A stretch of DNA of 64,000 nucleotides from an uncultured delta proteobacterium (GTDB lineage Bacteria; Desulfobacterota; Zymogenia; Zymogenales; Zymogenaceae): positions 928,001 to 992,000 of the forward strand of contig CAVTLK010000001.1 in the NCBI GenBank assembly GCA_963735595.1, written 5' to 3'. Position numbers: made by a program. Numbering within the stretch: the stretch's first letter is position 1; each line of letters opens with the position of its first letter. This document shows positions 27,501 through 30,500 of this stretch, one piece after another.

Positions 27501-30500
27501 CAAGGATGACGCCCACCGGTCTTTCCCATTCGGGGGTCATGACAAGCCCGTAGTTCCTCAAACACGCCCCCTGGCCCGGCCCCTCGAATGCAATCACCTC
27601 ATAGCCGTGTTCACGAAAGTAGTCCATCAGGGGGTAGAGCTCTTCAATAAATGAGTCGAATCCGCCATGGGCGACGAGAACTCCCTTCTTTTTTCCGTTA
27701 ATCACCGGAAGCCTCATCACCGGGAGGTATCCGCTTTGATACCGCACTTTCTCCTGGATAATCTCGCCCCGGGAATATTCGGATGCGAGATTTTTGTGAA
27801 AGAGATCAATGAACTTCTCGTAGGCCTTCTGTTTGTCGGTATCCCCAATGGGCATGAAAAACTCCGCGAGTCGAAGGTAGACCGCCGCGTCGCCCCCTCT
27901 TCCGTCACGCTCGGCCGTCTCGGCAAGCGAAAGAAATTCACGTTTCCAATCGGAGAGGCTCCTCGATCCGATTGGCGGCCGATCTGATTTCGTCGATCCT
28001 TCCCCCACCGAAAGAAAGGGGCCGGTTGAGCTGAAAATTCATGTTAACTTCGTCGTGGAAGTGATAATACCCCATTTGAGCTTTAAACTGACTCATAATT
28101 CCCTCCTCTGTACCGGTAGATCAACTCTCCGGTATCCGTACTGATTTTCGTACCATCACGCGGCGACAGCGTAGAAGGCCCAATACATGAACATTGTTCA
28201 TATACCATCTTGTACATCCACACCACCTGCTTGTCAAGAATATAATGAACCTTGTTCATATTTATTCTTGTCTCAGGTCGATTTCCATCGTATAATCTGG
28301 GTTACAGTCTATTGAAGGATTCCGTTCAGATGGATGAAAACGCCCCGCGTGAAAGGAACAAGCCCGGAGCCAGGACCCCCGTTCAGCCGAGGGCTCAGGA
28401 GAAGCGGGACAGGGTTCTCAGCGCCGCTTTTGATCTCTTTTCCAGGCTCGGTTATGATGCGGTGGGGATGAGGGATATTGCCGCGGCGGCCGGCGTCTCA
28501 ATCGGGACCGTATATGCCTATTTTGTCGACAAGAAGAAGACGTTCGTTGAGGTATGCGCGCTCTATTCTGCGGAGCTCGAGCACAGTTTTTTCAACCACA
28601 TTGACGAAGATCTGCCCGACCATCCCGGTGTCGAGGAATTCGTATATGGTGTCATCCGGCGATTTTTTGACATCTTCCGTACCCATATCAATATACACCG
28701 GGACTGTGTGATCATGTCCCTTACGGACGATCAGGTACGGTCGGTCTATACCGCGCTGGAACGGCGCGGTGAAGAAACGGTCGTGGGCGCCTTTACCGAA
28801 CGTTTCGGGGATCGGATCGAGGTGAGGGATGCCGAAGCGGCACGGCTTGTCATCCATAAGACAATCGACGAGATCATCCAGTACCTACTATTCTATGAGG
28901 TTCCGGTAGATCGCGATCGCGTCTTTCGGGAGACGGCGCGTATGATCGCACGCTATCTGGAGAAACGGTGAGACACCGGTGAGGGGATTAGGCGGGCTGA
29001 GCAAAAACCGCATCCGCTCCCGGACGTTTCCGGGAGAGCTATACGGGTTGGACGCGTCCCCCATCAAGCAAGCCTGCTGACCAGCAGGACCGCGGAGTTT
29101 GGTCAGAGTCCACAGAATTCGCTCGTCTGCCGTATCGGCAGCGGTGCGCGGTCCCTCGGGATCCGCTCAAACCCGAGCCCCTCGAAAAAAGCCGCCGCAG
29201 TCATGGTCAGGAGATAGAGCTCCCGGACACCCGCCTGCCGCGCGTGGTGGATAAGCCCCCGTACGACGGCCTGGCCGTATCCCCTGTTTCGCTCCCCCTG
29301 CGTCACCGCCAGCGACCGTAAGAGCCCGTATTCCCCGAGAATTTCCACCCCGCCTGCCCCGACGACCGATCCGTCGGCGCGGGCCAGAAAAAGAGAACCC
29401 CGCTTTTCGGGAATATCGGATGAGGGAAGCCCGTTCTCCTCGAGCAGGGCCATGATAAACGGGACATCTCGCTCAGTGGCCGGGGCCAAAACTATTCCAC
29501 GCCTCACGTTTTCCCCCTCTCATCGCCGTCTGGTGTCTTTTGTTCGGCTACCGGCGCAGTATAGCACACCCGTCACGGAGGCGCCATTAAAACAAAATCC
29601 CTCATCGGGCAAATATCTCGTATTGACAATTCAGCGGGACTGCGCTATAGTTCGAAAACTTTCGCGTATATCGGCCGGGCCGGGTAAACGGCCTAAAGAA
29701 CTCATTCATTCACGACAAAAGGCGCCAATGGAAAAGAAAAACCATAGAAAAGAAGTTGATCTGTTTCTCTTTGACCTGGATGGAACCCTGTCCGATTCCA
29801 AGAAAGACCTCGTGACGGCGATAAATAAAACCCTGGTTACCATGGGCTTTCCGGAGCTTCCCGAGGAAACCATCATCACGCTTGTCGGCAAGGGGGTGTC
29901 AAAGCTCCTTTCGAACTTTTCCGGCGACCCCTCAACGAAATTCGAAACCTACCGCGTCTACATGGAACAGCTCGATAAACACCTTCTGGACACCACCAAG
30001 CCGTTTCCCGGTGTTTTGGAGACGCTTTCGTCTATCACCAAGAAAAAGGCGGTAGTGACCAATAAGCTCTCGGCAATGGCCGAACGGGTTGTCGTCGGCC
30101 TGGGTATCGCCGATGAGATCGACTTCATCGTCGGGGCCGATACCGCCCAGAGTATGAAGCCGAATCCCGAACCGATTATCTTTGCCCTCAAGCAGTTCGG
30201 GGTTGAGCCGTCCCGCACCGTCATGGTGGGCGACACCATTGATGACATCACGGCCGCAAAGGCGGCGGGTGTTATTCCGTGCGGCGTCACGTACGGGTTT
30301 GGCACCAGACAGGACCTCGCGGACGCCGGGGCCGAGATCATCATCGAGGATATTTCCGAACTGCCCGCCCACTTTCAATAACTCTTGATTTGTTCGGGCG
30401 CCCACGTTATACTGCTCACATGATACGTAGTATCCAGCGCGTGGCCGTGACCGGCGCCGCCCTATCGGCGGCCGTCCTCTTGGCGCTCCTGTCCCTCTCA

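Follow-up and report, generated by a model that had tools for sequence, protein, structure and literature searches.

An arsN2-family gene of an uncultured delta proteobacterium very probably encodes a selenoprotein. An in-frame UGA appears to be decoded as selenocysteine (Sec), giving a 147-residue GNAT acetyltransferase. This reading, proposed in a preliminary description of the gene, is supported by the position of the TGA in an invariant cysteine column, silent changes behind it, a hairpin of the SECIS class that occurs with the TGA only, the Sec machinery of the genome and a C-terminal tail that completes the predicted fold. The gene lies in a stretch of 64 kb, the window. Its features are:

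29064..29507, minus strand: arsN2-family GNAT gene, 147 codons with the internal TGA as Sec, matching NF040501
29513..29519, minus strand: Shine-Dalgarno-like GAGGGGG, 5 nt 5' of the GTG, read from the sequence
29507-29505, minus strand: GTG start, aligning with ATG/GTG of relatives
29274..29291, minus strand: acetyl-CoA binding motif R73-x-x-G76-x-G78, from sequence and conserved columns
29103..29105 (contig 957105), minus strand: in-frame TGA, predicted Sec135, in the invariant Cys column of the family
29067..29102, minus strand: 12 codons 3' of the TGA (PNSAVLLVSRLA), predicted loop and last beta-strand, residues 140-145
29073..29088, minus strand: SECIS-like hairpin, 6-bp stem, GGUC loop that begins 20 nt 3' of the UGA, -7.7 kcal/mol
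29066-29064, minus strand: final stop TGA
29011..29026, minus strand: terminator-like hairpin with U tract, 3' of the second stop, a consensus match only

Reading frame and the cysteine column

On the minus strand, positions 29507-29064 read ...TSEFCGL-TGA-PNSAVLLVSRLA-TGA. The TGA reported at contig position 957105 was confirmed to be in frame, at 29105-29103, with EFCGL before it. The read-through protein scores 146 bits against the ArsN2 model of NCBIfam (NF040501; curated cut-off 125), and the match runs past the TGA to residue 143 of 147. The motif R73-x-x-G76-x-G78 is the acetyl-CoA motif of GNATs. Another GNAT match is located at C5:295733 of the genome. The gene is flanked by a HAD phosphatase gene that diverges from it and a TetR gene that converges on it, in an order kept in relatives. 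The terminator consensus scan found two sites against 1.2 expected and did not flag the SECIS-like hairpin. Elsewhere in the window (22720-25149, plus strand) two paralogs, each of about 400 aa, stand in tandem; in a relative they are 73% alike. For the paralog scanned there was no NCBIfam match at E<=1e-10.

The proposed coincidence of the TGA with the conserved C-terminal cysteine of the family was borne out. Of 325 full-length relatives, 324 have Cys in this column, and the remaining one is a misaligned row. The whole set of 353 aligned domains also includes 28 whose last residue directly precedes the column and which derive from 24 database clusters. Of 101 database matches, the closest 25 (61-92% identity) comprise 24 that stop one residue before the C-terminal Cys of the family; these truncated clusters are protein records, and the stop codon was read only in the seven TGA loci with DNA. 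The larger sets of relatives, ranked by their match to the full profile, are biased to Cys-bearing proteins and would hide truncated forms.

The tree was calculated from 64 selected rows, each trimmed ahead of the Cys column. It united 25 stop-ending and three Cys rows in one clade with a support of 99/95, and is compatible with one origin. The Cys rows (P0010, P0103 and P0104) are near-identical proteins inside the TGA clade with a similar tail, and may have reverted to Cys or be records in which U was converted to C. The Cys-to-Sec switch likely has a single origin within the family, whose lineage makes wide use of Sec. The tail of the TGA clade resembles the P-x-S-A-V-x-x-x-x-x-L tail of the Cys family. 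A second Cys at +6, present in 215 of the 353 domains, is Leu in the Sec clade. A conserved CxxU redox motif was ruled out: position 132 is Cys in 5 and Ser in 12 of 20 clade rows.

The ArsN2 family comprises 2,844 clusters at 50% identity (E<=1e-30 to the profile). In the sample of 401 genomes of the phylum, 22 matched NF040501 at E<=1e-22; an earlier count of 24 from the same sample may reflect another threshold. Four of the 22 have a TGA inside the match, and all four are genus members. This search missed G005, which represents a second genus of the family, because of its indels. Its TGA copy and the 24 truncated database clusters at 61-92% identity overturn the view that the TGA form is limited to one genus. 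G007, from a third genus of the family, has TGC at the site and no hairpin. An arsN2 copy was not found with the queries used in 4 of 10 family genomes. No independent Sec lineage appeared among the 401 phylum genomes or the fetched loci; the profile listings favour full-length matches, and no search aimed at shorter proteins was made.

Downstream codons, hairpin and decoding

Seven distinct TGA loci, relatives at one syntenic position, were compared: four genomes of the genus, G005 and the metagenome loci L048 and L049. The conservation of the TGA and 11-12 following codons described for the four genus genomes was confirmed, and these codons are kept in all seven loci. Codons +1, +3, +4 and +11 vary silently only, and codon +2 varies among N, D and G. 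In amino-acid-invariant columns, 99 of 105 pairs are identical at codons +5 to +10, compared with 33 of 63 at +1 to +4. The true stop, at +12 or +13, differs among the loci, four having TAG and three TGA. Over the five genes free of indels, the conservation of the 16-nt hairpin is 0.975, higher than that of all 383 gene-body windows of the same size. The most distant relative retains an identity of 0.88 over 33 nt after the TGA. For seven other stops the figure is 0.15-0.36, and it is 0.61 where the following gene adjoins. Close relatives show high downstream identity after some ordinary stops too. Judged by its sequence, the region 3' of the TGA behaves as a coding sequence with an embedded RNA signal.

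The hairpin reads CCTG[C/T]T-GGTC-AGCAGG (29088-29073) and occurs once in the window, with 0.00 occurrences expected by chance. The GGTC-loop hairpin announced in the preliminary description is thus present after the TGA, in a slightly different notation from the one given there. The bacterial SECIS model, as set out in the accessible part of PMC13188914, has a loop of 3-9 nt with G at its first two positions, a stem of 4-16 bp, a distance of 16-37 nt from the UGA and a free energy of at most -7.5 kcal/mol. The hairpin agrees with it in its loop of 4 nt starting with GG, its stem of 6 bp, its distance of 20 nt and its -7.7 kcal/mol, which passes the energy limit only narrowly. Among 78 distinct loci with the site found by motif search, the hairpin is present at all 7 with TGA and at none of the 71 with Cys, two of which pass a looser pattern. 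Of ten Sec codons in known families of the genome, five have a GGUY-loop hairpin behind them (FdhA, two UshA-like, HUGP and one SaoL-like site), and the other five lack the strict pattern. This type of hairpin follows only 170 of 109,969 TGA triplets and 4 of 2,629 TAA/TAG gene ends; these rates are descriptive because the strict pattern was set after the candidate sites had been seen. The stem is nearly invariant: the six TGA loci compared, out of seven, show one G-U-compatible change and no compensatory change. The 86-nt region does not fold more stably than its shuffles (z -0.42). Viral contigs did not yield the combination of TGA and hairpin. Three metatranscriptome contig sets of the same study do not cover the stretch, which speaks neither for nor against decoding. 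Measured by the published model and by the Sec sites of the genome, the hairpin is a probable SECIS.

The genome (G000) encodes tRNA-Sec, SelB, SelD and SelA; selB, selC and selD were looked for in this genome only. Its selD carries a Sec TGA of its own. Two selD-like genes were observed, at C3:6046-6975 (plus strand) and C3:24665-25476 (minus strand); one of them has the Sec TGA, and the other is incomplete or split. SelA is over the cut-off in 9 of 10 family genomes. Its gene is in one piece in eight, among them the three other genus members, whereas G000 and G005 have it split. The G000 copy (C4:329754-331101) has a one-base insertion relative to two relatives, likely an assembly indel; the G005 copy is in three pieces. 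A MutY-like gene (window 21707-22646) and a HUGP/GUXX-star fusion (C2:755550-756684) are also split across frames. Together with the split selA, this suggests indel errors of the assembly. The arsN2 copies have indels in G001 and G005 (both TGA) and in G007, the one Cys copy of the family. SelB and tRNA-Sec likely decode the UGA at the invariant C-terminal Cys position of the family, which is followed by the in-frame GGUC-loop hairpin.

Three other explanations of the TGA were considered. It could be a true stop behind a 134-residue protein, with the conserved 3' stretch acting as a regulatory DNA or RNA element such as an operator or a terminator that separates convergent genes. The convergent TetR gene, the palindromic hairpin, the products of 134-140 aa that all databases annotate for the TGA clade and the conservation after some ordinary stops in close relatives would fit this. 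Yet the changes 3' of the TGA are mostly silent in frame, the tail is like that of the Cys family, and the second stop varies, unlike the first, which is TGA throughout. There is also no U tract at the hairpin, a terminator-like site being located further downstream, and truncation would remove the last strand of the model. A true stop is very improbable on this evidence. Even less credit is given to a decaying pseudogene lineage with one inherited TGY-to-TGA nonsense change. Decay could explain why the copies of G001 and G005 and the Cys copy of G007 carry indels, and why the gene was not found in 4 of 10 family genomes. It is at odds with the 24 database clusters, down to 61% identity, that are open to the same residue, with 54 of 74 amino-acid-invariant columns that vary silently in the five indel-free genes, and with a tail that is more conserved than the body. 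The three pieces of the G005 selA point to assembly noise.

Cys insertion at Sec codons occurs, and the other members of the family function with Cys at this site. The UGA could be read through as Cys or Trp rather than Sec, by a Cys-charged tRNA-Sec at low selenium or by leaky suppression, and three clade proteins do show Cys. Against this stand the 830 long coding frames of the genome that end with TGA, so that a general reassignment of UGA does not apply. The single UCA-anticodon tRNA found was called tRNA-Sec, and a hairpin of the SelB type implies Sec. Read-through as another amino acid is as improbable as a true stop, and decoding as Sec is the preferred reading.

Predicted fold, acceptor loop and the link to arsenic

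The predicted structure (pLDDT 95) ends with a helix (129-134), a loop and a strand (140-145, pLDDT about 96). A stop at the TGA would delete this last strand. The best structural match is the N-acetylglutamate synthase (NAGS) of Neisseria gonorrhoeae (2R8V; Z 19.9, rmsd 2.1, 144 aligned), with model residues 1-147 on residues 283-435 of the chain. ArgA of Mycobacterium tuberculosis (5YGE) also matches, with Z 18.9. According to the accessible part of PMC4490483, the last helix-to-strand loop of NAGS binds glutamate via Arg425 and Ser427, with Glu353 proposed as the base. An ungapped count back from the aligned ends would place residue 135 two places before Arg425. Sec135 is thus predicted to open the helix-to-strand loop that binds glutamate in NAGS. 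Glu353 aligns to an invariant Leu in ArsN2 and Arg316 is without an aligned counterpart; ArsN2 is therefore not a plain NAGS. The score against the full-length ArgA model is 27.6 bits, far below its cut-off of 202.85, and neither of the glutamate-site residues, Arg316 and Glu353, is matched.

The predicted Sec135 would sit in the acceptor-binding loop, and the last 12 residues would form the final beta-strand. If Sec is inserted, the Cys/Sec residue may, as a selenolate, be a soft ligand for a thiophilic acceptor, keeping it next to acetyl-CoA so that the acetyl group is transferred directly. The acceptor would probably be a trivalent organoarsenical or a related metalloid compound. This proposal is tentative, at somewhat under an even chance given Sec. 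The next most likely role, rather unlikely in itself, is that Sec takes the acetyl group and forms a selenoester intermediate. The ligand is favoured over the acetyl-selenoester because the ArsN2 family is tied to arsenic. The selenol is ionised at neutral pH, which disfavours a general-acid role of Sec.

Given Sec, the residue could also be a catalytic nucleophile with an acetyl-selenoester in a ping-pong reaction, instead of a metalloid ligand, and the acceptor may be an ordinary amino acid or amine without relation to arsenic. The residue is invariant, and the Leu at the position of the proposed base Glu353 would require a chemistry other than that of NAGS. The Sec clade also has neither the second Cys at +6 nor ars neighbours. 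On the other side, the closest solved relatives use direct attack, as far as described in the accessible part of PMC4490483, and the ArsN2 family is strongly tied to ars genes. Such a nucleophile is judged unlikely, and the selenolate ligand is kept as the working proposal.

The arsN2 genes are the NAGS-like clade (clade 2) of the arsN genes and were placed by their ars operon context in PMC6465285; in the part of that paper available, ArsN2 is named and ArsN1 is the one studied. Ars-like neighbours were found at 33 of 71 Cys loci and at 0 of 7 TGA loci, by probes of which arsC and arsM may also match related phosphatases and methyltransferases. Eight of 32 longer relatives scanned are fusions to ArsM-, ArsN1-, ArsC- or ArsR-like domains. 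No ars-like match was found in the 64-kb window or at the seven TGA loci, and acr3 and arsM of the genome are on another contig. The arsenical reading is weakened by this lack of ars genes. By the operon context used in PMC6465285, as far as its accessible part defines it, the gene is a member of the sequence family and not an arsN gene. The 'arsenic resistance' attributed to the gene is the name of the family only.

Relation to known selenoproteins and relatives

Lineage-specific Cys-to-Sec switches are known, and new selenoprotein families are reported regularly. Most of the prokaryotic selenoproteins in the catalogues bind metals or have redox functions. A cysteine that is switched to Sec is usually a catalytic one, and the switch therefore singles out one residue to test in ArsN2. 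It likely marks the invariant residue as central to the chemistry of this large family, for which the accessible papers, in the parts available, give no established substrate. The annotation of an entire clade, whose proteins end 12 residues early in the databases, is corrected as well. Table 1 of PMC13188914 lists 119 prokaryotic selenoprotein families and includes no GNAT and no acetyltransferase. The words 'acetyltransferase' and 'GNAT' are absent from the main text of PMC13326102, PMC12013277, PMC13745706, PMC11227280 and bioRxiv 10.1101/2022.07.06.499078. No paper joining ArsN2 with a selenoprotein was found in a search of the open literature, with subscription journals and RefSeq comments outside its scope. 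The protein is likely a selenoprotein form of a known family with a fold absent from the 119-family inventory, as represented by that table.

The genome encodes further Sec candidates. An alpha-2-macroglobulin (Pfam TED domain; C4:339137, plus strand; loci L250 and L263-L273) has a TGA at the thioester motif, PYG-[TGA]-NEQ. This TGA is found in 8 of 10 family genomes, each with the same 7-bp GGTTC-loop hairpin. In the two Cys genomes (G001 with TGT, G006 with TGC) the site is recoded and the hairpin lost, so that the hairpin goes with TGA and not with Cys, as at the arsN2 loci. Five matches outside the family among the 401 genomes are without an internal stop. Alpha-2-macroglobulin is not in the 119-family table of PMC13188914, and a literature search gave unrelated papers only. 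If its TGA is Sec, it would form a selenoester and would possibly be more striking than ArsN2. A GNAT with a Sec nucleophile and an acetyl-selenoester would then mean that acyl chemistry passed from sulfur to selenium on two occasions in the bacterial family, in ArsN2 and in alpha-2-macroglobulin. This combination is judged unlikely.

In the window, an UshA-like selenoprotein gene (about 31869-32927, plus strand) lies 3 kb from the arsN2 gene. It has an in-frame TGA at 32094-32096 with a PCG-U motif and a GG-loop hairpin; it belongs to a known family, and its best match, NF041198, is below the full-length cut-off. A MerB/SaoL-like organometallic lyase (C5:364541 and 364766, plus strand; L253) has two in-frame TGA codons; SaoL is listed with one Sec in the accessible part of PMC13188914. 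A Ni/Fe-hydrogenase b-type cytochrome subunit (C1:675605, minus strand; L254) has an in-frame TGA spanned by the HMM match and no strict hairpin. A metallo-beta-lactamase-fold hydrolase (C2:74505, minus strand; L257) with an in-frame TGA and a 6-bp GGAC-loop hairpin at +20 is also a Sec candidate.

ArsN2 shares the fold with the NAT domain of NAGS and with M. tuberculosis ArgA, and has the acetyl-CoA motif. It differs from the NAT domain of NAGS by an invariant Cys/Sec, predicted to lie near the acceptor loop. The protein has the LLRS, LLT and EFxxxC motifs of ArsN2 (NF040501), the same length once it is read through, and the same relation to NAGS. In comparison to Cys-type ArsN2, the Cys codon is replaced by a TGA with a SECIS-like hairpin, the Cys at +6 by Leu, and the gene is located outside an ars operon. 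SaoL, arsenite methyltransferase, arsenate reductase and HgcA/B show the same C-terminal truncation at a UGA facing Cys homologs. They also have an in-frame SECIS, predicted for the arsN2 gene, and a metal or metalloid link in common with ArsN2. Unlike in those selenoproteins, the predicted Sec of ArsN2 is not part of a thioredoxin-type redox motif.
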